From: a virus
DNA length: 38,473 bases
Virus record (IMG/VR): IMGVR_UViG_3300032893_000164
Span: 1 to 38,473 of that record
Strand: one strand, 5' to 3'
Shown: positions 2,598-24,854 of the stretch, one piece after another
Layout of the letters: every line of letters begins with the position of its first letter
How positions within the stretch are numbered: position 1 is the stretch's first letter
Program-made: the position numbers and the translations under genes
Notes under the pieces: model-generated
The model's database searches: none
What the model was told of the DNA's origin: nothing
The model's input: the letters and a program-made list of their open reading frames with translations, nothing else

Positions 2598-3251
2598 TCA
2601 CCATTTTCCAAACTCGAGCGGAGTATTGACGTGTGCCTGAGAAAAAAAGTCAATTCCCGGCTTCACTGGATCAAAGGTTTCCCCGTATCGATCACAATCT
2701 AGTTCTTTATTGATATGCGTGAAGGGAAGAACGAGCTCCATTTTTTTACCGCAATGTTCCATGTAGTCGCCTTTTGTGAACTCGAGAAACAATGGGAATG
2801 CGTCTTCATTGATAATGTGAATCGACGCTTCTGGAAAGTTATATCTTTTACACCAGACGCTTTGCCAGCCGGTATTCGCGTCATTGATCCAGTCCGCCAT
2901 TCGACGAGAAAGCACGAAACTGTCCGAGTCAATGTAGATCAGCTTTTTAGCGCGACTCGTTTGAATGTAATGATTCATGGCATAGAGTCCACGCCAGCAG
3001 TATGGATACCAATCTCCGCCGCCGTGATTAAGCCTTAAGTTGAATCGAATCGATTCGAAATCGAACGAGTCGGTGAGCTGCTTCCAAAGATCATCTGGAG
3101 ATGCGTTGTCGAGAAGTAAAATTCGATCGAACTGAAGTTCTCCCTGGATGTTTAGATAATAATCAAGAAATTTGACGGTTCTCGCTAAGCGCGAAGATCC
3201 TGATTTATCTTCACCCTCGAGGAAACTTGTTGTCCAAAGAATGGTGCTCAC
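2598..3251 (-). CDS. Glycosyltransferase, GT-A/GT2-like
   Basis: LLLDNASPDD (like the GT2 DNxSxD motif) and YIDSDSF (DxD). 217 aa. 4-nt overlap with the upstream GT gene. Confidence 0.65.
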   Translation of the reverse strand: MSTILWTTSFLEGEDKSGSSRLARTVKFLDYYLNIQGELQFDRILLLDNASPDDLWKQLTDSFDFESIRFNLRLNHGGGDWYPYCWRGLYAMNHYIQTSRAKKLIYIDSDSFVLSRRMADWINDANTGWQSVWCKRYNFPEASIHIINEDAFPLFLEFTKGDYMEHCGKKMELVLPFTHINKELDCDRYGETFDPVKPGIDFFSQAHVNTPLEFGKW

Positions 3252-4234
3252 AAAATCTCGTTTAGCACGGGAATAAACTTATCAGCAGTCATATTGGCGA
3301 CGACCTTTTGCCAGCCAGGAAATTTGCGATAATCTCCCTTTTTAAAGCCAGAGCCATAGGTCTGGTAATAGCGATTAGGAGTGTTCGCATCTGGCTCAAT
3401 GGCTCGAAACTTATAGGTTTGAGAGCCTTTTCTAATCGGTGCGACATGGATGGGATCTACAAGAGTATATCCCGCCACAATCCATGTGTCGGTACATCCA
3501 GCTAGATGAATCATTCCTCCATCAAGTCCAATAATACATTTGGCTCCAGCGATGACGCCCGCGGCCTGGCAAAGAGTTGTTTTGTTGGTCAGATCAATTC
3601 CCTTCGCGCGGTCGATCGGCAGAAGCTGCGCCTTAAGTTCCATCTCATTAAACCCGATCTCAGCTTTTTCTTTTCCGATGAATACGGGCGTATAGCCTTT
3701 CGCCAACACATAGTCGATGAGTGCGTTCATGGTTGGAATCGGCATGGCTTTGATGGGTTCAGAGGCCGAGCTCACGAGACAAACATATTTTTCCGGCAAA
3801 TGGAATTCCTTAATGAAGAGTTCTTCTGGCCTCACCTGGAGATAGTTTTTCTTGTTCAGATCATAGATGTGTCGATCTGAAAGCATATGGAAGCCATAAT
3901 CAACCGGATGAGTACGCATACACGTATGATTGGTAATCCACTGCGTGCTCATTCCCTGAATGTCGTGCCGAAACTTAGCCTCTGCTCTCGAGAAGGGTCG
4001 AACGGTGCTGAGCGGAGGTAATACGTGTTTGGCGAATTCGAGCAAATAGTCAGGAACCCAGACATGGAAATGCGTCTCGGGATAATTCCGAATATTGTAG
4101 TCTACGGCCACGAGCTCGCAGATTAAATCGCCTGCCCCGCCATCGGTCAGAATATTATGGAATTCCGCGGGAGTTTTATGGATGGCCGAGATAAATGGAT
4201 CTGGTGTCTCTGTTTTTGTTTGCGATTGGATCAT
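3248..4234 (-). CDS. Glycosyltransferase, GT9 (heptosyltransferase)-like
   Basis: N-terminal GGAGDLI and C-terminal TTLCQAAGVIAGAKCIIGLDGGMIHLAGCTDTWIVAGYT resemble the GT9 signature (L..l..li..a.l.ig.DSG..HlAaa.g.p). 328 aa. Confidence 0.7.
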   Translation of the reverse strand: MIQSQTKTETPDPFISAIHKTPAEFHNILTDGGAGDLICELVAVDYNIRNYPETHFHVWVPDYLLEFAKHVLPPLSTVRPFSRAEAKFRHDIQGMSTQWITNHTCMRTHPVDYGFHMLSDRHIYDLNKKNYLQVRPEELFIKEFHLPEKYVCLVSSASEPIKAMPIPTMNALIDYVLAKGYTPVFIGKEKAEIGFNEMELKAQLLPIDRAKGIDLTNKTTLCQAAGVIAGAKCIIGLDGGMIHLAGCTDTWIVAGYTLVDPIHVAPIRKGSQTYKFRAIEPDANTPNRYYQTYGSGFKKGDYRKFPGWQKVVANMTADKFIPVLNEIL

Positions 4235-7025: not shown

Positions 7026-7222
7026 GACATGTTCCTACGAGGTCTCTTCTTGGTTTTCGGAAGCGCCCGGATGGCCTTTGCCCTAGCTTGCCCGGCCCGA
7101 GCCTCTTCCAACATCTTCCCGAGCTGAATCACGGTCTGGTTCCTGAAGTTCTCAATCTTGGATTTCAAGATGTCGAACTCACACCATGCGGCGGCTTCCC
7201 GAACTTTCGACTCATTGCTCAT
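7022..7222 (-). CDS. Hypothetical basic/helical protein (66 aa)
   Basis: Internal ATG at 7222 overlaps the DUF3307-like gene's stop as ATGA. Confidence 0.55.
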   Translation of the reverse strand: MSNESKVREAAAWCEFDILKSKIENFRNQTVIQLGKMLEEARAGQARAKAIRALPKTKKRPRRNMS

Positions 7223-7575
7223 GCGGACCTCAGAAGCGGAAGCGTGGCGATCAGACAACTCATGTGAATCGCCTGGTCAGCGCCGATCACGACAAAGAAG
7301 TCATGGACGCGCTTCTCGGCCCATAGCTTCTTGGTCATCCGAGACGTGACGTAGTCCACGCCGAAGTGGGCCGCTCCATTCATCAAGGCATAGGCCAAGG
7401 CGGAACCAAGCGGCGCAGTCCAACAAATACTCAAGAACAACGCGCCGGTATAAACCCCAATGTGCTTTCCGAGCCATACGTTCGAGCTGCTCTTTCCTTG
7501 GGCCATCGCGTTTGTCTGGAGAACAAAGTCACAGACGAAATGCGCCCAGATTATTAGATAAATTAACTTGGTCAT
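7219..7575 (-). CDS. DUF3307-like integral membrane protein
   Basis: N-terminal HFVCDFVLQT (the H-x3-DF-x-LQ signature of DUF3307) plus about 4 hydrophobic segments. 118 aa. Confidence 0.7.
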   Translation of the reverse strand: MTKLIYLIIWAHFVCDFVLQTNAMAQGKSSSNVWLGKHIGVYTGALFLSICWTAPLGSALAYALMNGAAHFGVDYVTSRMTKKLWAEKRVHDFFVVIGADQAIHMSCLIATLPLLRSA

Positions 7576-7614: not shown

Positions 7615-7941
7615 TTAGCCGTCGCCGTCGCCGTCGCCGGAGCCGGAGCCGGAGCCGTAGCCGTCGCCGTCGCCGTCGCCGGAGCCGGAGCCGGAGCCGT
7701 AGCCGTCGCCGTCGCCGTCGCCGGAGCCGGAGCCGGAGCCGTAGCCGGAGCCGTAGCCGTAGCCGGAGCCGTCGCCGGAGCCTACGCCGTCGCCGGAGCC
7801 GGAGCCGTCGCCGTAGCCGTCGCCGTAGCCGGAGCCGGAGCCGTAGCCGTAGCCGGAGCCGTAGCCGTAGCCGTAGCCGTAGCCGGAGCCGTAGCCGTCG
7901 CCGGAGCCTACGCCGTCGCCGGAGCCTCGTTGCTCATTCAT
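7615..7941 (-). CDS. (Gly-X)51 dipeptide-repeat acidic low-complexity protein (108 aa)
   Basis: ATG at 7941 overlaps the stop of the upstream gene (ATGA). MNEQR is followed by strictly alternating G-[S/D/Y/V] up to the TAA at 7615-7617. Same strand as the whole operon. Confidence 0.6.
   Translation of the reverse strand: MNEQRGSGDGVGSGDGYGSGYGYGYGYGSGYGYGSGSGYGDGYGDGSGSGDGVGSGDGSGYGYGSGYGSGSGSGDGDGDGYGSGSGSGDGDGDGYGSGSGSGDGDGDG
7618..7743. repeat. Three base-perfect 42-bp tandem repeats
   Basis: gccgtcgccgtcgccgtcgccggagccggagccggagccgta occurs three times (7618-7659, 7660-7701, 7702-7743). Encodes YGSGSGSGDGDGDG x3 on the minus strand. Confidence 0.95.
7618..7926. repeat. Trinucleotide-periodic GC-rich array (GCC alternating with GTC/GGA/GTA)
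   Basis: About 309 nt built only from the units gcc-gtc, gcc-gga, gcc-gta (plus two gcc-tac). Confidence 0.95.
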
Positions 7942-8390
7942 GAAATCACCTCTTCCCATCCGAGAACGGACAGTAATTTATCCCCCCACTCTCTCGAAAC
8001 GATGTTCTTAATATCGTCGGCGGTCATGGGCGACTCATCCCGATTGGCCTGTTTCAGTGCCAACCTACATCCGGCGGCACATGCCCCAGTGAGAAGGCGA
8101 AACTCATTGAGCGTAAACTTATGAGTCCGTCCTATTTTTTTGATCGATTCGCGAAGGGCTTCCATAGAGGGGCGCCGTGTTGGATCTTTCCAAAGTGCAT
8201 CCGCCACGGCGCTTGCGATGGTATCACCGTGAGCGCACCAATGGGTTCCGGCTAACGTAACGAAAAACCGCCTCTTCCCGCTTGAAAGCTTATAAATCTC
8301 AACCGTATGTCCATCGGAGGTTTGGCTGATGCGGATAGGCCCAATGATGTCTTCCATTAGCCCATCACGGTAAAGCTTTCTCACCTTCAT
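7938..8390 (-). CDS. Hypothetical protein (150 aa; HWCAHGDT and LLTGACAAGC motifs)
   Basis: Start at the internal ATG 8390, just after the upstream stop. Globular-looking composition. Confidence 0.7.
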   Translation of the reverse strand: MKVRKLYRDGLMEDIIGPIRISQTSDGHTVEIYKLSSGKRRFFVTLAGTHWCAHGDTIASAVADALWKDPTRRPSMEALRESIKKIGRTHKFTLNEFRLLTGACAAGCRLALKQANRDESPMTADDIKNIVSREWGDKLLSVLGWEEVIS

Positions 8391-8394
8391 CGAG

Positions 8395-8709
8395 TTAGTT
8401 CTTCCAATCTTGAATAGACTTGAAAGCTTCATCGGTCATCTCCGCAAGCTCGAGACCATTTGGATTGATAATGGTTACAGATGGAAGCTTGGCGCCGATA
8501 GAATGTCCGCCATTGGGTTTGAGACCGTTTGCCGCGACGTCGCTGATGGAACCGGACTTATCCCTCGTATAAAATCGCCAGAGCCGATAAGCATTATTGA
8601 GTGTCACCATTTGTGTGGCCGGATCAAACTCGGAAACTACACCGGCGTGAACTCCGGCTACATTGCCCCTCACAATTACCTTTTTCCCAATCATTTTATT
8701 ATTTGCCAT
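8395..8709 (-). CDS. Hypothetical conserved-looking phage protein (104 aa)
   Basis: Start MANNKMIGKKVIVR at 8709 with a GAAAGG SD. The pattern VIVR..AGVHAG...L.NA.RLW.F....S.S..A..G recalls a widespread phage family of unknown function. Confidence 0.7.
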   Translation of the reverse strand: MANNKMIGKKVIVRGNVAGVHAGVVSEFDPATQMVTLNNAYRLWRFYTRDKSGSISDVAANGLKPNGGHSIGAKLPSVTIINPNGLELAEMTDEAFKSIQDWKN

Positions 8710-8748
8710 ATTTACCTTTCTGTTTTTATCAAACCCTTTGCGCACTCT

Positions 8749-9534
8749 TCACGACTTTGCTTTCTTCTTTGTTTTCCCTTTCGCACGAATCGCACAGGCC
8801 TCTTTGAGGCTAGCGAGAGAGGAATCCCAAATCTTCGATTTGATCTCTCGCCAAAACACCGCTTTCGACGAGGCATCGGCGGCGGAGGCGGCGGCGTAGG
8901 CGGAGGCGGCGGCGGAGGCGTAGGCGTAGGCGGCGTCGGCGGCTCCGGCGACGGCGGAGGCGTAGGCGGCGTCGGCGGAGGCGGCGGAGGCGTAGGCGGC
9001 GGCGTAGGCGGAGGCGGCGGCGGCGGAGGCGGCGGCGGCGGAGGCGTAGGCGGCGTAGGCGGCGTAGGCAGCGGCGGAGGCAGCGGCGAGCCTCGCTCGC
9101 ATCGCCTCTCTCATTTTGGGCTTCAATTCAAGACAGAAGGCGCGCATTTCAGTCCACTCGCCAAATTTGAACTGACGAAGCGTTTTTGCTTCCGACTTCA
9201 AATCGAGCGCATCCGCCAAAATTGGAAGCGTCTTCGTGATGGAGTGATGAACCAAAAATTCGGTGCGCTCCCTGTGCTTGCCGTCTCGAGTTCCTATGAG
9301 TTTCGGGATCAATGGCTTAAGCTTTTGTCTTGATTCGTCATCCATTTGGTCATTCAGTCGAATCGCGTATTGAGTTAAGGCGGGGCATGCACACTCGGGA
9401 TGATCCGAAAATCCACCGCTGGTCACATAATCCACAGCTTGCATGACGCAAACCTGCCCGCTTAGTTCCTTTCCGGTTCCGGCGCGAAGCCTGAGTTTCT
9501 TGATCTCTTTCCATCGCTCCTGATTAATTTCCAC
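8749..9534 (-). CDS. Protein with a Cys/His-containing N-domain and a ~72-aa Ala-rich (A/S/Y/D) low-complexity tract
   Basis: GTG at 9534 sits 7 nt after AGGAGA (the ORF-track start at 9555 is TTG). N-domain contains CVMQAVDYVTSGGFSDHPECACPALTQYAIRLND. The tract is AAASAAAYAAYAAYASAAAASAAAASAYAAAYASAASADAAYASAVAGAADAAYAYASAAASAYAAASAADA. Confidence 0.7.
   Translation of the reverse strand: MEINQERWKEIKKLRLRAGTGKELSGQVCVMQAVDYVTSGGFSDHPECACPALTQYAIRLNDQMDDESRQKLKPLIPKLIGTRDGKHRERTEFLVHHSITKTLPILADALDLKSEAKTLRQFKFGEWTEMRAFCLELKPKMREAMRARLAAASAAAYAAYAAYASAAAASAAAASAYAAAYASAASADAAYASAVAGAADAAYAYASAAASAYAAASAADASSKAVFWREIKSKIWDSSLASLKEACAIRAKGKTKKKAKS
8872..9088. repeat. Trinucleotide-periodic GC-rich array (GGC with GGA/GTA/GTC guests)
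   Basis: About 215 nt of ggc-ggc-gga-ggc-gta-ggc... units; encodes the Ala-rich tract on the minus strand. Confidence 0.9.
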
Positions 9535-9625
9535 CTTCTTGTCTCCTTTTCTCAAGCATGTTCACAGTTTAAATCTCCATGACCCAACCACAGCGGCGCT
9601 CATTAAGAGAATCCAGTAAATCAAC

Positions 9626-16410: not shown

Positions 16411-16746
16411 ATGCCATTTGAAAAAGGAAGATCAGGAAACCCGAATGGCAGACCGCCGGTCGTTCTCCCTGAAGTTCAAAGGGCAATCGATGCGAATCGA
16501 AACGCAATCAAGGTTCTCATTCTCCAAAAGCTTGATCCGAAGGTTGAGGCTTGGATTGAAAACATCATTGATGAAGGAACAGAGCAAGGCGACGCCATTA
16601 GACTTAAAACCCTCTTGGAGCTAGTCTTTGGAAGAATCCCAGTGGCCGAACCAGAATTCCAACTCTCCGACGAAGAAAAACTCCTTGTTCTCGCCTTCAG
16701 AGAACGTAAACGAGCTCTCCCCTCTAGCGAACCAACTTCTGGATGA
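16411..16746 (+). CDS. Terminase small subunit-like protein (DUF5681-like N-terminus)
   Basis: The N-terminal FEKGRSGNPNGRP motif is typical of a class of small terminases. Lies immediately upstream of, and overlapping, terL. Confidence 0.6.
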   Translation: MPFEKGRSGNPNGRPPVVLPEVQRAIDANRNAIKVLILQKLDPKVEAWIENIIDEGTEQGDAIRLKTLLELVFGRIPVAEPEFQLSDEEKLLVLAFRERKRALPSSEPTSG

Positions 16747-18193
16747 AATCTACCAAAAAGGGCTTTCCTCACTTCGAAGGGTAAAGCCATTTGACTGGCG
16801 CTCCATCGCCTTCGACAAGCAAATAGCGTTCATCGAAGATCCGCACAGGCTCAAAGCATCTTTCACGACTCGCCGCGGAGCCAAATCCTACACAGACGGA
16901 ATCTATCTCCTGAAAGAGGCCGAAGAAAACCCAGGTTGCAATTGCCTCTACCTCGGACTCACACGACTCAGCGCGAAAGGCATTATTTGGAAGGACGTGC
17001 TTAAACATATCAATACTCGTTGCGATTTGGGGGTTACGTTTAATGAAACTGAGCTCACAGCTACAACTCAAAATGGATCCGTTATCTACTGCGCCGGCGT
17101 GGACGTGGATGAAAATGAGCGTAAAAAACTTTTCGGACGCAAGTACAAACTTATTGTGGTCGATGAAGCCGCTCTTTACGGGATTGATCTTGTTGATCTG
17201 GTTTATGTTGTGCTTCGACCTGCTCTGGCTGATCTCCGGGGGACAGCAGTCTTATCTGGAATGGCCTCAAACATCACGCGCGGACTGTTCTACGACATTA
17301 CAACCGGCAAAGAACAGGGCTGGAGTCTTCACAAATGGTCCGCTCATGATAACCCTCATGTGGCGAAGCAATGGCAGGAAGAACTCGACTTCATCGCAAA
17401 GCATCAGCCAGAGCTCATGCAAACCGCCCGCTTCCGCCAGGCGTACCTCAATGAATGGGTCGTCGACGAAGAAAAGCTAGTCTATAGGTTCAACCATGAA
17501 AAAAATACATACCGAGAGCGACCTCAAGCGCGTCCTGATGGCTGGACTTACATCCTTGGCGTTGATCTTGGCTGGGAAGACGATAATGCTTTTGTGCTCT
17601 GCGCATTCCATGAAAACTTACCTGAACTCTTTGTTCTCAGGACATACAACAAACCGAAAATGACCTTTGACCAGGTCGTCGTGAAGATTAACGAGTTCAT
17701 GCAGGATCCGAATTTCCCCCCCTGCAAGGTGATCATCGACGGAGCCAATAAGCAGGGCGTCGAATCCATGCGCGTCCGCTCGAGCATCCCCTTCGAATTC
17801 GCAGACAAGCAAGGCAAAGTTGACTTCATTGAGATGCTAAATGGGGATTTGGTTCAGGGCAAAGTGAAGATCAATGTGAATTGCACTGAACTCATCGATG
17901 AGATGAAAGCACTCATCTGGAAGACCGATGGCGATATCATCGTCATCCCGAAGAAAGAAGAACCCCGCCTTCCTAACCATTTGTGCGACGCGTTCCTTTA
18001 CGCTTGGCGCAATGGCTATCATTACCAGCATGAGCCGGAAGTAAAGAAGATCGTAGTCGGTTCGCGCGAATGGTACCTCAAGCAGACTGAAAACCAATGG
18101 GAGCGCGAGCGCGCTGCAATCGAGAAGCAGCAAGGCATTGGAATTGGTTCTGGATGGCCGGATGATTCGAATTCAGGCTGGCCAAGCCAGTAA
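16628..18193 (+). CDS. terL: Terminase large subunit
   Basis: Deviant Walker A TTRRGAKS and Walker B KLIVVDEAA. A C-terminal nuclease-like half with conserved acidic residues. 521 aa. No in-frame ATG before residue ~212. TTG at 16628 sits 7 nt after GGAG. Confidence 0.85.
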   Translation: MEESQWPNQNSNSPTKKNSLFSPSENVNELSPLANQLLDEIYQKGLSSLRRVKPFDWRSIAFDKQIAFIEDPHRLKASFTTRRGAKSYTDGIYLLKEAEENPGCNCLYLGLTRLSAKGIIWKDVLKHINTRCDLGVTFNETELTATTQNGSVIYCAGVDVDENERKKLFGRKYKLIVVDEAALYGIDLVDLVYVVLRPALADLRGTAVLSGMASNITRGLFYDITTGKEQGWSLHKWSAHDNPHVAKQWQEELDFIAKHQPELMQTARFRQAYLNEWVVDEEKLVYRFNHEKNTYRERPQARPDGWTYILGVDLGWEDDNAFVLCAFHENLPELFVLRTYNKPKMTFDQVVVKINEFMQDPNFPPCKVIIDGANKQGVESMRVRSSIPFEFADKQGKVDFIEMLNGDLVQGKVKINVNCTELIDEMKALIWKTDGDIIVIPKKEEPRLPNHLCDAFLYAWRNGYHYQHEPEVKKIVVGSREWYLKQTENQWERERAAIEKQQGIGIGSGWPDDSNSGWPSQ

Positions 18194-20117: not shown

Positions 20118-20377
20118 TCCAGAATCTCAAAGACCTTGAGAGACTTCTCAAGCTTTGCAGAAAGCAGGGAGTCACAGAGGTAAAATTAGGCGATGTTGAA
20201 TTGAAGTTCGGGGATTTGCCCCCCGAAAGCCGCCCATCTCGAGATCAAGACCTTATTCCCACAGACAATCCCTATGCAGACTTTCCGGATGGGGAGCTCA
20301 CGCCAGAGCAGCTCATGTTCTACTCTGCCGGCGGACTTCCGCAGGATGATCCTTACCGAAAGGATAATCCGCAATGA
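20114..20377 (+). CDS. Small protein preceding the portal (87 aa)
   Basis: ATGA overlaps at both ends. Confidence 0.65.
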   Translation: MIQNLKDLERLLKLCRKQGVTEVKLGDVELKFGDLPPESRPSRDQDLIPTDNPYADFPDGELTPEQLMFYSAGGLPQDDPYRKDNPQ

Positions 20378-22314
20378 AGGTTTCGCAGCCTAAGCATTCC
20401 CTGAATAAAATCGTCATGAAAACGAAGCCCAAAGGTGATCTCACTGGGCGGGGAATGTTGGCTAAGTGGTGGTTGGCTGAAGATGAAGCGAAGCTTGCCA
20501 CCGAACTGTGCGGAACCGCAGCCTACCTCAAGACCAATCAGACCTACCGCATGAGGCAGCTTGCTTGCGATGTGCGCCTTTACTGCGGACTTTCGATCTA
20601 CTCTTACGCAGGCTCAAACGTGTCCAAGATGGACATGACGAAAACCCTTCCGGATGACCGGCCTACTTTCAATTTGATTCAGGCGTGTACTGATACGCTC
20701 GTATCTCGCCTATCTCAAGACAGACCCGAACCTAAATTTCTCACCGATAACGCGGATTATAAGCAGCGTCATCTCGCACAACGCCTGAATCAATTCATGT
20801 TGGGTGAGTTCTACCAAACCAAAGCCTACGACAAAGCAGTCAAGATGCTCCGTGATTGCATCGTCATGGGTGTTGGATGTCTCAAGGTCTATGAAGGCGA
20901 TGACGGCAAGGTTTGTGTAGACCGAGTTTTAGTCACCGATCTTTTCACGGACGAAAATGATTCTCTCAACGGCGATCCTCAGACGATGTACCAGCTTAAG
21001 CTCATGGACCGTGAAAAACTCATGTCCAACAGTTCTAAGGCTGCACAGGGGATCATTCGTGACACACCCAATAGCTATCCTGATAACTCTCCTGATTCTG
21101 GGCGCACTATTGCTGATCAAGTCATGGTGGTTGAAGCCTGGAAACTTCCTTCTGGACCTGATCCTACTGCTCCTAACTATGTCCCTGGTCGTCATGTCAT
21201 TGCTACCGTGAATGGCGTCATCTTAGACGAACAGTGGAACAAGCCCAAATACCCGTTTGTGTTCCTGACCTATCAGGATCCGTTCTTAGGATTCTTTGGA
21301 AAGGGACTTGCAACTCAGCTTTTCGGTACTCAGCTGACTCTGAATCGCATTCTTTATACGATTGCGAGAGCGATTACTCTGGTGGGCGTGCCGCGCGTAT
21401 TCCTCGAGCAGTCTTCTAAGGTCGTCAAAGCGCATAACAACAATGAAATTGGCGTGATTGTCACCTATTCGGGTACAAAGCCCAGCTATGAAGTGGCTCC
21501 ATGCAATGCTCCTGAGCTCTACGCCGAGCGAGACAAGCTGATTCAGTATGGATTCCAACAGTGCGGCGTCTCTGCGATGCAGGCCACAAGCCAAAAACCC
21601 GAGGGACTGACGAGTGGCGCTGCAATTCGGTCCTATGACGACATCTCCAATGACCGTTTTGCCGAACTCTCGAAGAAATACGAGAACGTCTTTGTAGAAC
21701 TCGCCTATCATATTGCAGATCTCGCGAAAGATATCGCAGAGCGTGACGGTAAATACGAGACTGTTTATCCGAATAAGGACGGCACGAAGGAAGTTGATCT
21801 TCCTGCCATGAAGTTCCTGAAGGACCCGTTCATCATTCAATGCTTCACTGAGAGTTCGCTCCCCCGTTCGCCTGCAGGCCGTATGCAGGCCGTCACGGAA
21901 TACGTCCAGGCTGGATTGTTCTCAATCAAAGAAGGTCGCCGCTTGATGAGAACTCCCCAGGACCTCGAGCAAAACGAGCAGCTGGATAATGCATCTGAAG
22001 AGAGAATCTTTATGATGCTCGACGATATTGTGGAATCAGGCAAATACACTCAGCCCGACATGTTCATTGATCTGGACTTGGCTACTACTTTGACAGTCCA
22101 GTACATCAATCTCTATCTTGCGGCCAAACTCGAGGAAAAGAAGGCCGACATGCTCAGGACCTTCTTTAGCCAGATTCAGGCGTTGAAGCAGGCAGCGGTG
22201 CCGCCGGCTCCTCCGATGGCTCCGCCGAATGTTTCACAGGCCAATCCACAACCACTTCCACAGAGTCCGTTAGTACCGAACGCGGTCCAGCAGCCACAGC
22301 AAGGGGCCGCATAA
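20374..22314 (+). CDS. Portal protein
   Basis: 646 aa. Position is between the terminase and the scaffold/capsid genes. Pro/Gln-rich C-terminal tail. Confidence 0.8.
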   Translation: MKVSQPKHSLNKIVMKTKPKGDLTGRGMLAKWWLAEDEAKLATELCGTAAYLKTNQTYRMRQLACDVRLYCGLSIYSYAGSNVSKMDMTKTLPDDRPTFNLIQACTDTLVSRLSQDRPEPKFLTDNADYKQRHLAQRLNQFMLGEFYQTKAYDKAVKMLRDCIVMGVGCLKVYEGDDGKVCVDRVLVTDLFTDENDSLNGDPQTMYQLKLMDREKLMSNSSKAAQGIIRDTPNSYPDNSPDSGRTIADQVMVVEAWKLPSGPDPTAPNYVPGRHVIATVNGVILDEQWNKPKYPFVFLTYQDPFLGFFGKGLATQLFGTQLTLNRILYTIARAITLVGVPRVFLEQSSKVVKAHNNNEIGVIVTYSGTKPSYEVAPCNAPELYAERDKLIQYGFQQCGVSAMQATSQKPEGLTSGAAIRSYDDISNDRFAELSKKYENVFVELAYHIADLAKDIAERDGKYETVYPNKDGTKEVDLPAMKFLKDPFIIQCFTESSLPRSPAGRMQAVTEYVQAGLFSIKEGRRLMRTPQDLEQNEQLDNASEERIFMMLDDIVESGKYTQPDMFIDLDLATTLTVQYINLYLAAKLEEKKADMLRTFFSQIQALKQAAVPPAPPMAPPNVSQANPQPLPQSPLVPNAVQQPQQGAA

Positions 22315-24768: not shown

Positions 24769-24851
24769 GGGAGGATAGCTCAGCGGTCAGAGTACTCGGA
24801 TTGGCTAATAAACCATCCTAGGGGTCCTTGGTTCGAATCCAAGTCCTCTCA
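24769..24851 (+). tRNA. tRNA-like gene with canonical acceptor, D and T arms but a 27-nt anticodon arm (10 nt too long); isotype undetermined
   Basis: Acceptor GGGAGGA/TCCTCTC (G2-U71). U8, D arm GCTC-AGCGGTCA-GAGT, variable loop GGGTC, T arm CTTGG-TTCGAAT-CCAAG, discriminator A. No encoded CCA. The anticodon region is CTCGG-ATTGG-CTAATAA-ACCAT-CCTAG. Confidence 0.6.
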
Positions 24852-24854
24852 CCC

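Follow-up and report, generated by a model that had tools for sequence, protein, structure and literature searches.

The question raised by this locus was whether an open reading frame (ORF) made up almost entirely of one dipeptide pattern is a gene at all, and if so, what its product might do. The ORF lies on the minus strand at 7615–7941 of the IMG/VR virus record IMGVR_UViG_3300032893_000164, which was analysed over its full length of 38,473 nt (hereafter the window). The window is phage-like, with a terminase at 16628–18193 and a portal at 20374–22314. The ORF encodes 108 amino acids (aa) and is called the (Gly-X)51 gene or, together with its homologues, the GX gene. It is very probably a real coding gene of a cassette family linked to DUF6948, and the (Gly-X)n genes of phages form a large, widespread and so far uncharacterised family.

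Translation from 7941 to 7615 gave MNEQR, followed by 51 unbroken Gly-X dipeptides and a last Gly before the TAA stop. The array thus spans 103 of the 108 residues. X was Ser in 20 cases, Asp in 15, Tyr in 14 and Val in two. The whole protein contains one Gln, one Asn, 15 Asp and no Ala, and it has an isoelectric point (pI) of 4.05 and a net charge of -15. Each residue type is encoded by one codon only (GGC x52, TCC x20, GAC x15, TAC x14 and GTA x2). The last 126 nt before the stop (7618–7743, minus strand) consist of three base-identical 42-bp copies, each encoding YGSGSGSGDGDGDG, according to both the copy comparison and Tandem Repeats Finder. The latter called the array at 7616–7926 with a period of 6 (51.8 copies) and also with a period of 42. 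The peptide GSGDGVGSGDG is present twice, at residues 6 and 48. The GC content of the gene was 75.8% vs 49.8% for the whole window. When all six frames were scanned, the next-longest strict Gly-nonGly run in the window was 7 dipeptides vs 51. The original prediction had claimed the uninterrupted chain with Ser, Asp, Tyr or (twice) Val as X, the three perfect copies, the recurring peptide, the single codon per residue, a start codon overlapping the upstream stop and an otherwise balanced genome, and all of this was confirmed.

Searches of the GX protein against Pfam, PHROG, NCBIfam and PADLOC gave only a spurious sub-threshold TrAA12 low-complexity match, and the PDB sequence search gave low-complexity noise only. 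Rfam had no match in the GX region, and a scan for promoters and terminators found no excess over shuffled sequence.

Directly upstream on the minus strand lies a gene that we call the partner gene (7938–8390; 150 aa, or 164 aa from an alternative upstream start at 8432). It is preceded by the DUF6948 gene (8395–8745, minus strand; Pfam PF22253, E = 2e-11), whose probable start at 8694 gives 99 aa. In the window, DUF6948 and GX are hence on the same strand with one gene, the partner, between them, as in all close relatives. The junction of the partner and GX genes is a coupling element at 7938–7952 (minus strand), comprising a Shine–Dalgarno sequence (GAGGTGA, 7952–7946), a 4-nt spacer and an ATGA stop/start overlap (7941–7938). 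This element doubles as the code for the C-terminal tail of the partner (...WEEVIS). The same element, a GW[EDSN]EV.S tail plus ATGA, recurs behind every tandem GX gene in relatives. The start signals and the overlap fit translational coupling of GX to the partner gene.

The coding status was judged from relatives, i.e. IMG/VR contigs with a homologue of the partner gene (n=18). All close relatives had at least one (Gly-X)n ORF adjoining the partner gene. The Gly codon differed by genome: it was GGC in the window and in loci L001, L002 and L005, GGG in L003, GGA in L006 and mixed in L004. Further swaps concerned Ser (TCC/TCT/AGC/AGT), Tyr (TAC/TAT) and Asp (GAC/GAT). Between the TCN and AGY codons of Ser, there is no single synonymous step. 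Despite these swaps, the peptide pattern G-[S/Y/D/N] was retained. The alternative frames and the opposite strand gave unrelated peptides in each genome (Ala-Thr, Met-Gly-Leu, Val-Trp or Arg-Ser). As the codons differ, the peptide pattern is kept and the other frames are not conserved, selection acts on the Gly-X protein. A comparison of the gene slot in relatives, which the original prediction had proposed as a check, was therefore positive: the frame and the Gly-X alternation were conserved, and the length varied.

Family statistics were taken from 34 intact GX genes of related loci. Their length was 26–108 aa, with the window gene as the longest. Gly positions were kept to 83–100% (100% in 22 genes). 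All 34 products were acidic, with a net charge of -3 to -15 and almost no Lys or Arg, and Asp and Glu together made up 6–18% of residues. Selection acts on composition and alternation, with Gly at every second position, a small polar or aromatic X (Tyr/Asp/Ser/Asn), a net negative charge and almost no Lys or Arg.

Codon optimisation as the cause of the single-codon use was ruled out, since the array codons are not the preferred ones of the phage: TCC accounts for 13% of Ser codons, GTA for 12% of Val, GAC for 40% of Asp and TAC for 43% of Tyr. One codon per residue therefore points to a recent amplification of a few units (concerted evolution).

In an unbiased scan, IMG/VR was queried with nothing but the DNA pattern (GGCNNC)9GGC. 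At least 120 viral loci matched, and a Gly-frame ORF was present in 116 of them. At the scan loci listed, X was Tyr in 36%, Asp in 24%, Ser in 22% and Asn in 12% (sum 93%), though the pattern allowed any NNC codon. NNC codons can specify 15 non-Gly residues. Of the listed matches, 100 loci could be analysed, and in 71 of these a same-strand DUF6948-family gene abutted GX. A broader profile gave the order DUF6948 then GX in 58 of 59 loci, and the median distance from the DUF6948 stop to the first Gly-X was 24 nt. A partner-family gene was found at just 14 of the 116 loci listed. Hence, the core pair is DUF6948 plus (GX)n, and the three-gene form of the window is a variant of its clade. Fusions of DUF6948 and GX also occurred (P0166, P0236 and L060, the last within the scan matches). 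The other recurrent neighbours at the listed loci were, judged by sequence, a cytosine methyltransferase, RecT, an exonuclease, SSB, NinB and helix-turn-helix regulators.

DUF6948 is the most conserved member of the cassette (70–92% identical between related loci). When 21 minus-strand genes of the window were compared with the related loci, only the partner and DUF6948 co-occurred with GX. The cassette occupies differing genome contexts in the cultured phages NK-7, Koroua and phiPLPE. DUF6948 and GX, here joined by the partner, thus form a mobile accessory cassette. A large search gave 671 DUF6948 homologues, none of which carried a functional name, and a PDB search with the DUF6948 profile had no match. 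The median pI in the window clade was 9.5 for DUF6948 and 9.0 for the partner. Electrostatic pairing of a basic DUF6948 with an acidic GX was considered; it holds in this clade and fails family-wide (pI 5.5–10.7).

The window GX protein had 116 matches among 5.8 billion proteins searched. Nearly all were metagenomic proteins of 90–190 aa with a (G-[YSDN])n stretch of 40–100 residues plus a small globular part. An in-frame fusion to a folded domain was seen in 115 of the 116. The position of GX relative to the globular part was N-terminal in 52, C-terminal in 47 and internal in 16. The globular parts formed at least 31 sequence clusters. The largest was DUF7666-like (35), and DUF6745, DUF6948 and TIGR02996 were also found fused to GX. 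One cluster was homologous to the N-terminal half of the partner (hhalign 96.8%, E = 2e-10). A common 'GAC' helical motif joining the partner with the other fused domains was rejected (hhalign probability of 21% over 14 columns only). The genomic contexts examined for these proteins were phage-like, again with DUF6948 just upstream.

In cultured phages, the next gene downstream of the DUF6948 homologues was a GX gene. Ralstonia phage NK-7 encodes XCO36015.1 (137 aa, labelled 'fibroin heavy chain-like protein') and Pectobacterium phage Koroua encodes XDF89605.1 (89 aa, labelled hypothetical). A degenerate GX version follows DUF6948 in the metagenomic MW202898. In Iodobacter phage phiPLPE, an unannotated open frame of 81 aa lies right behind the DUF6948 gene phiPLPE_84 on the minus strand (1164–1409 of L156, corresponding to 46045–46290 of record EU876853.1 / NC_011142). 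Its likely ATG is the fourth codon, a Shine–Dalgarno sequence is present and it uses the same four codons as the window (GGC, TAC, GAC and TCC). GX next to DUF6948 recurs in phages of diverse hosts (Ralstonia, Pectobacterium, Iodobacter) and in a Chthoniobacterales metagenome-assembled genome. As cultured phages of Pectobacterium (Koroua and also Ymer), Ralstonia and Iodobacter carry the module, it is directly testable at the bench. The window itself had no megablast match to cultured phages in this region, and its terminase was at most 27% identical to that of any cultured phage. The genome-collection scan found distant relatives of the partner only.

The phiPLPE array is exactly the '(KMGCCG)35' repeat that Comeau et al. 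(2012) reported at 46,046–46,255 as non-coding and, speculatively, as an attachment site (PMC3391216). Codon turnover, start signals and fusions argue that this repeat is a gene. The published non-coding reading would be corrected accordingly, and a missing gene would be added to that genome. The same table lists two further repeats, a 15-bp unit in vibriophage CP-T1 and a 42-bp unit in vibriophage 138 (PMC3391216). Both units are divisible by 3, and these repeats might likewise be coding. Apart from PMC3391216, the literature searched on phage Gly-X proteins and the DUF names contained nothing relevant, and no treatment as a protein family, no link to DUF6948 and no proposed function were found. 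Within the literature searched, the statement that no characterised phage protein resembles this one was thus borne out. What was already known is the array as DNA (2012) and the 'fibroin-like' label of one homologue. In a survey of low-complexity regions of prokaryotes and phages, aromatic residues were heavily under-represented, and the largest phage region was 115 aa long, covering 46% of its protein (PMC6821194). By this measure, a Tyr-rich low-complexity region over 95% of a protein is atypical.

The number of tandem GX genes per genome ranged from one to about ten. In many genomes, each tandem unit closes with GW[E/D/S/N]EV.S and then ATGA, the same tail as at the C-terminus of the partner. 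This tail encodes the Shine–Dalgarno sequence and the stop/start overlap that serve the next gene. The window GX gene has no such tail and is the last in its coupled series; hence, we take the tail to serve coupling rather than to be a peptide motif with a function. The maximum copy number was seen in L012, where about ten tandem GX genes at 924–2800 have Ala, Asn, Asp, Trp, Cys or Thr as X and are each coupled via GWNEV[LT]S and ATGA. Two of the L012 copies change frame mid-array, through either pseudogenisation or an assembly error.

Array length can differ between otherwise nearly identical genomes. L019 and L020 were 99.5–99.9% identical, yet they differed by an in-frame InDel of 60 bp (20 residues) within the array. 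The suggestion of a slippage-prone, length-variable locus was supported. The array appears to evolve in steps of 6 nt or multiples of it, through slippage during replication or through unequal recombination. Such turnover would homogenise each genome to one codon per residue, and the length and the gene copy number would shift quickly. The 42-bp triplication in the window is the most recent expansion of the array, and likely a hotspot of slippage or assembly collapse. In the closest relatives (L031, L032, L033 and the P0002 contig; partner 81–100% identical), every contig stops at or just inside the array, with its end within about 45 bp of the array start. Short-read assemblies therefore break at the array, which makes the repeat number in the window uncertain, and the three 42-bp copies may be a collapsed count. 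More generally, the GX array is a systematic assembly breakpoint, and truncation or false circularisation at such genes may affect many viral contigs. This accounts for a recurrent breakpoint in viral metagenomes.

The partner appears to represent a previously undescribed domain family. Its 247 close homologues had neither a name nor a Pfam domain, and the family was absent from Pfam, PHROGs and NCBIfam. The AlphaFold model (predicted local distance difference test (pLDDT) of 89.9) has an N-terminal beta-sheet followed by a helical bundle. Foldseek found no PDB match to the model below E = 0.02, and the PDB search with the partner profile had no match either. Matches in BFVD were longer phage proteins, including two with the automatic names 'Lamprin' and 'E3 ubiquitin-protein ligase'. 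When 1.84 billion representatives were searched exhaustively with a profile, 106 clusters were recovered, most of which carried the partner domain C-terminal to a repeat array. These arrays were of the BspA-type LRR_5, LRR_8, LRR_4 or FNIP kind, consisted of other repeats resembling solenoids, or were GX arrays in true or degenerate form; direct fusions of GX and partner were found in L024, L025, P0237, P0247 and cluster 5. GX thus appears to hold the architectural place of the folded binding repeats in the distant homologues of the partner. Over 36 sequences that are 18–51% identical to the window partner, His68, Cys118, Asp23 and Lys82 (164-aa numbering) and a TGAC motif were invariant, and these residues may form an active or metal site. 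The partner homologues of Riemerella phages CRP5 and CRP6 are labelled 'ribonuclease inhibitor', probably because of their leucine-rich repeat part.

For the GX protein, AlphaFold (41-sequence alignment) gave a pLDDT of 36.4 and no secondary structure. This is consistent with a disordered monomer and is uninformative on intermolecular assembly. The window gene has the features of the family, i.e. at least 10 unbroken Gly-X dipeptides, X mostly Tyr/Asp/Ser/Asn, a net negative charge and a position shortly downstream of a same-strand DUF6948 gene.

On this basis, we tentatively prefer, with rather less than even confidence, the reading that the GX product is a disordered multivalent interaction arm in an accessory cassette. 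The arm would be defined by its composition, with Tyr, Trp or Phe as stickers in an acidic spacer of Gly, Ser, Asp and Asn. It would bind weakly and multivalently in concert with DUF6948 and the partner domain, which constantly accompany it, and would fill the place of the leucine-rich or solenoid arrays of the distant partner homologues. Speculatively, it might bind or sequester a component of the host or of a competing phage in early infection, as an accessory function in conflict. A resemblance to [G/S]Y[G/S] low-complexity domains had been pointed out before and stands in part. As in the prion-like domains of FUS and hnRNP proteins, Tyr is regularly set in Gly/Ser (all 14 Tyr in the window are G-Y-G), disorder is predicted and the constraint is on composition and not on sequence, so a mode of multivalent weak interactions is plausible. 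The likeness ends with the Gln/Asn-rich and nearly uncharged nature of the prion-like domains, whereas the GX array contains no Gln, has 14–24% Asp and is in perfect period-2 order. Moreover, GX is a stand-alone gene of a prokaryotic virus.

The arrays of leucine-rich or solenoid repeats that are fused to the partner domain in other phages share with GX the slot N-terminal to or beside the partner and the variable repeat number. They differ in being folded repeats of 20–25 residues; GX has 2-residue repeats with no predicted fold, and in the window clade it is split off into one or more separate genes.

Several points speak against the coding status or against the proposed arm. A GGC-NNC hexamer array never contains a stop in the Gly frame. 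The open frame alone is therefore no proof, and the case is made by codon turnover, fusions and start signals. L012 has about two frameshifted copies among about 11. Low AlphaFold confidence does not prove disorder, and the method is blind to an intermolecular beta-sheet assembly. A disordered compositional arm has no obvious need of strict period-2 alternation, which could be inherited from the repeat unit or be a hint of beta-type structure. PADLOC, PHROG and Pfam families yielded no functional hint. DUF6948 and the partner are without functional annotation or structural relative, so the role as an interaction arm is argued purely from architecture.

A more far-reaching reading is that DUF6948 plus (GX)n is a new kind of mobile phage module, in which a hyper-mutable dipeptide repeat serves as the rapidly adapting component and slippage tunes its length and composition. 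We regard this as possible but doubtful. As a speculative example, GX could be a condensate-forming or multivalent sponge that acts against an immune or nucleoid factor of the host, and DUF6948 (here with the His/Cys partner) would be the constant adaptor.

Among the alternatives to the interaction arm, silk- or amyloid-like self-assembly survives best, but is unlikely. The chains would form beta-strands, one face all Gly and the other Tyr/Ser/Asp, and stacking of these strands would yield fibrils or a gel that serves inside the cell as a scaffold or trap. The strict alternation over 51 dipeptides and the Gly positions kept in the 34 genes suit this reading, since such periodicity fits a beta-strand and is superfluous for a mere spacer. 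Annotation pipelines do match fibroin (XCO36015.1 of NK-7), and the poly-Gly-Ala product of C9orf72 is generally known to form amyloid. However, X is 18–24% Asp and 20–36% Tyr, and Ala is nearly absent. Tight inter-sheet packing of the GAGAGS type is disfavoured where one face carries like charges and bulky rings. Furthermore, AlphaFold shows no strand propensity, and the proteins are short (26–137 aa) and are often tails or loops on small soluble domains.

The original prediction had called the protein fibroin-like, and of this the alternation remains. With the silk fibroin heavy chain (Bombyx-type, GAGAGS/GAGAGY), GX shares the strict Gly-X alternation, Ser and Tyr among X and an origin in homogenised repeats of hexanucleotide multiples, which are difficult to assemble. 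Fibroin, however, has mainly Ala as X and is uncharged, whereas GX has Ser, Tyr, Asp and Asn with essentially no Ala and is acidic. Fibroin is also very large and secreted and has terminal domains, in contrast to the 26–137 aa of the cytoplasmic GX proteins, which are without terminal domains (the window protein has a 5-residue N-terminus). No sequence homology to fibroin was found in Pfam, NCBIfam or PDB, and no beta structure was predicted (pLDDT of 36).

Another reading, improbable to a slightly greater degree, is that of a polyanionic mimic of nucleic acid, a decoy that titrates a DNA- or RNA-binding defence or nucleoid protein of the host. On one face of an extended chain, Asp carboxylates could lie ~7 Å apart in a phosphate-like manner, and the Tyr rings could mimic bases. 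The uniform acidity of the 34 intact members with almost no Lys or Arg, the basic DUF6948 and partner of the window clade and the location among recombination and replication genes (RecT, exonuclease, SSB, NinB) would agree with it. So would a pentapeptide-repeat protein near the cassette in L004. Pentapeptide-repeat proteins are known DNA mimics. The idea of a polyanionic decoy was already part of the original prediction; the net acidity of all members supports it, but the charge density is modest and variable, and some members consist mostly of Asn, Ala, Trp or Cys (L002a and L012). The known DNA mimics Ocr and ArdA are rigidly folded, while no fold is predicted for GX, and Pfam and PHROG showed no homology to anti-restriction families. 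Acidity is the one feature that GX shares with these mimics.

It is quite improbable that GX is a substrate, or a cis or trans regulator, of an enzymatic partner. A His68/Cys118 dyad, or a triad with Asp23, would cleave, ligate or cross-link Gly-rich peptides in the manner of sortases or of enzymes of ribosomally synthesised and post-translationally modified peptides (RiPPs); alternatively, the GX arm would deliver the enzyme to its target. The invariance of these residues and of Lys82 over the 36 diverse sequences favours this, and in the model, Cys118 is placed right before the helix 119–128 and His68 within a strand. Several short genes in tandem, hypervariable in their core, are reminiscent of precursor-peptide arrays, and a repeat array with a Cys domain recalls effectors that combine leucine-rich repeats with an enzyme. 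But most GX loci listed in the unbiased scan (about 86%) have no partner-family gene nearby and are paired with DUF6948 only. The partner model matches no hydrolase fold. GX, with its 5-residue N-terminus, has no leader peptide as in RiPP precursors (e.g. of the microcin B17 type), and searches of the operon ORFs revealed no YcaO, McbBCD, radical-SAM or peptidase family.

A toxin/antidote-like or exclusion module deserves equally little weight. Here, an aggregation-prone GX would be harmful or protective depending on context, and DUF6948 would be its chaperone or neutraliser. The two genes are tightly coupled and mobile, keep the fixed order of DUF6948 then GX in varied contexts, and the downstream member evolves rapidly. 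In Koroua, the cassette sits between opposite-strand tail genes in a moron-like position. Against this, no similarity to toxin–antitoxin or defence families was found, GX is also joined to dozens of unrelated domains without DUF6948, and nothing points to toxicity.

We give slightly less credence still to a tolerated by-product, i.e. a selfish, expansion-prone repeat that is translated by chance into a functionless product. Concerted evolution, fast length change and the occasional frameshifted copies in L012 would be expected from it. It does not account for the strongly non-random X at the scan loci listed (93% from four of 15 possible residues), for the recurrence of the G-[S/Y/D/N] pattern and of DUF6948 adjacency across phages of diverse hosts, or for the repeated recruitment of GX as a fusion partner.

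Very improbable, finally, is a non-coding DNA element in which the GC-rich hexamer array is a recombination or attachment site and the ORF is incidental: the speculation of Comeau et al. (PMC3391216), an integrase beside the cassette in L032, the P0002 contig and MW202898, and the Gly frame that is open by construction speak for it, but codon turnover largely refutes it, as the DNA is unconserved while the peptide pattern is kept, and ATG starts, Shine–Dalgarno sequences and stop/start coupling are present, in-frame fusions to folded domains are the rule, the array length is freely variable unlike that of an attachment core, Rfam was blank for the region, and an integrase is neither among the recurrent neighbours of the scan loci listed nor among the window ORFs scanned.

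Other repeat proteins were compared with the putative interaction arm. The C9orf72 dipeptide repeats (poly-GA, poly-GR and poly-GP) and the Gly-Ala repeat of EBNA1 share the Gly-X dipeptides encoded by hexanucleotide repeats. By hindering proteasomal unfolding, the Gly-Ala repeat of EBNA1 from Epstein–Barr virus shows that a Gly-rich repeat can be functional in a virus. The C9orf72 products stem from pathological repeat-associated translation, and in EBNA1 the repeat forms an irregular tract within the protein, whereas GX has a conserved gene to itself, with start signals of its own and a mixed X (Tyr/Ser/Asp). RTX beta-roll repeats (GGxGxDxUx) do not match, as the GX period spans 2 residues (6 nt) and the array lacks GG doublets. 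Collagen-like (G-X-Y)n does not match either, with Gly at every second and not every third residue.

If the GX product is functional, it would constitute a natural conserved gene family whose entire product is a dipeptide repeat. Apart from silk and the products of pathological repeat translation, few dipeptide-repeat proteins are known. Phages would then use slippage-prone low-complexity proteins as evolvable tools, and if the reading as a new module is true, this would amount to a protein-level contingency locus in phages. The association also gives a first handle on three unannotated families, namely DUF6948, the partner domain and the DUF7666-type domains.

Several neighbours of the cassette were noted. 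Directly downstream of the GX gene lies a DUF3307 / phrog_2470 membrane protein (7219–7575, minus strand), whose PHROG category is 'moron, auxiliary metabolic gene and host takeover'; it is not kept beside the cassette in related loci. In the same leftward gene block, a heptosyltransferase-like GT9 glycosyltransferase (3248–4234, minus strand; Pfam E = 5e-13) may modify host lipopolysaccharide. A role as modifier of the Ser-Gly repeats was considered for it and rejected, as it did not co-occur with GX in relatives. In L004, a pentapeptide-repeat protein (ANLSGADLSG...) with a small C-terminal domain lies at 1435–1908, with the GX cassette about 0.4 kb upstream of it; it is a further protein of this region that combines repeats with a small domain.

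Just upstream of the cassette, the minus-strand ORF 8749–9555 contains an Ala-rich stretch of 74 residues (AAASAAAYAAYAAYAS...) at 8866–9087. Its codons are GCC x46 plus TCC, TAC and GAC, i.e. the same three non-matrix codons as in the GX gene. The ORF had a weak phrog_3416 match only and is unconserved in relatives. A plus-strand poly-Gly ORF of 307 aa (8410–9333) is an antisense artefact of it.

Outside this region, ARAGORN called an 85-nt tRNA with the anticodon CTA (amber-suppressor type) at 24769–24853 (plus strand), between late genes. TAG was the stop in only 4 of 50 window ORFs. The terminase frame is open across one in-frame TAG (16622–16624) just upstream of the called TTG start, which would give 619 vs 521 codons. 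TAG suppression or recoding may hence occur in the late genes.

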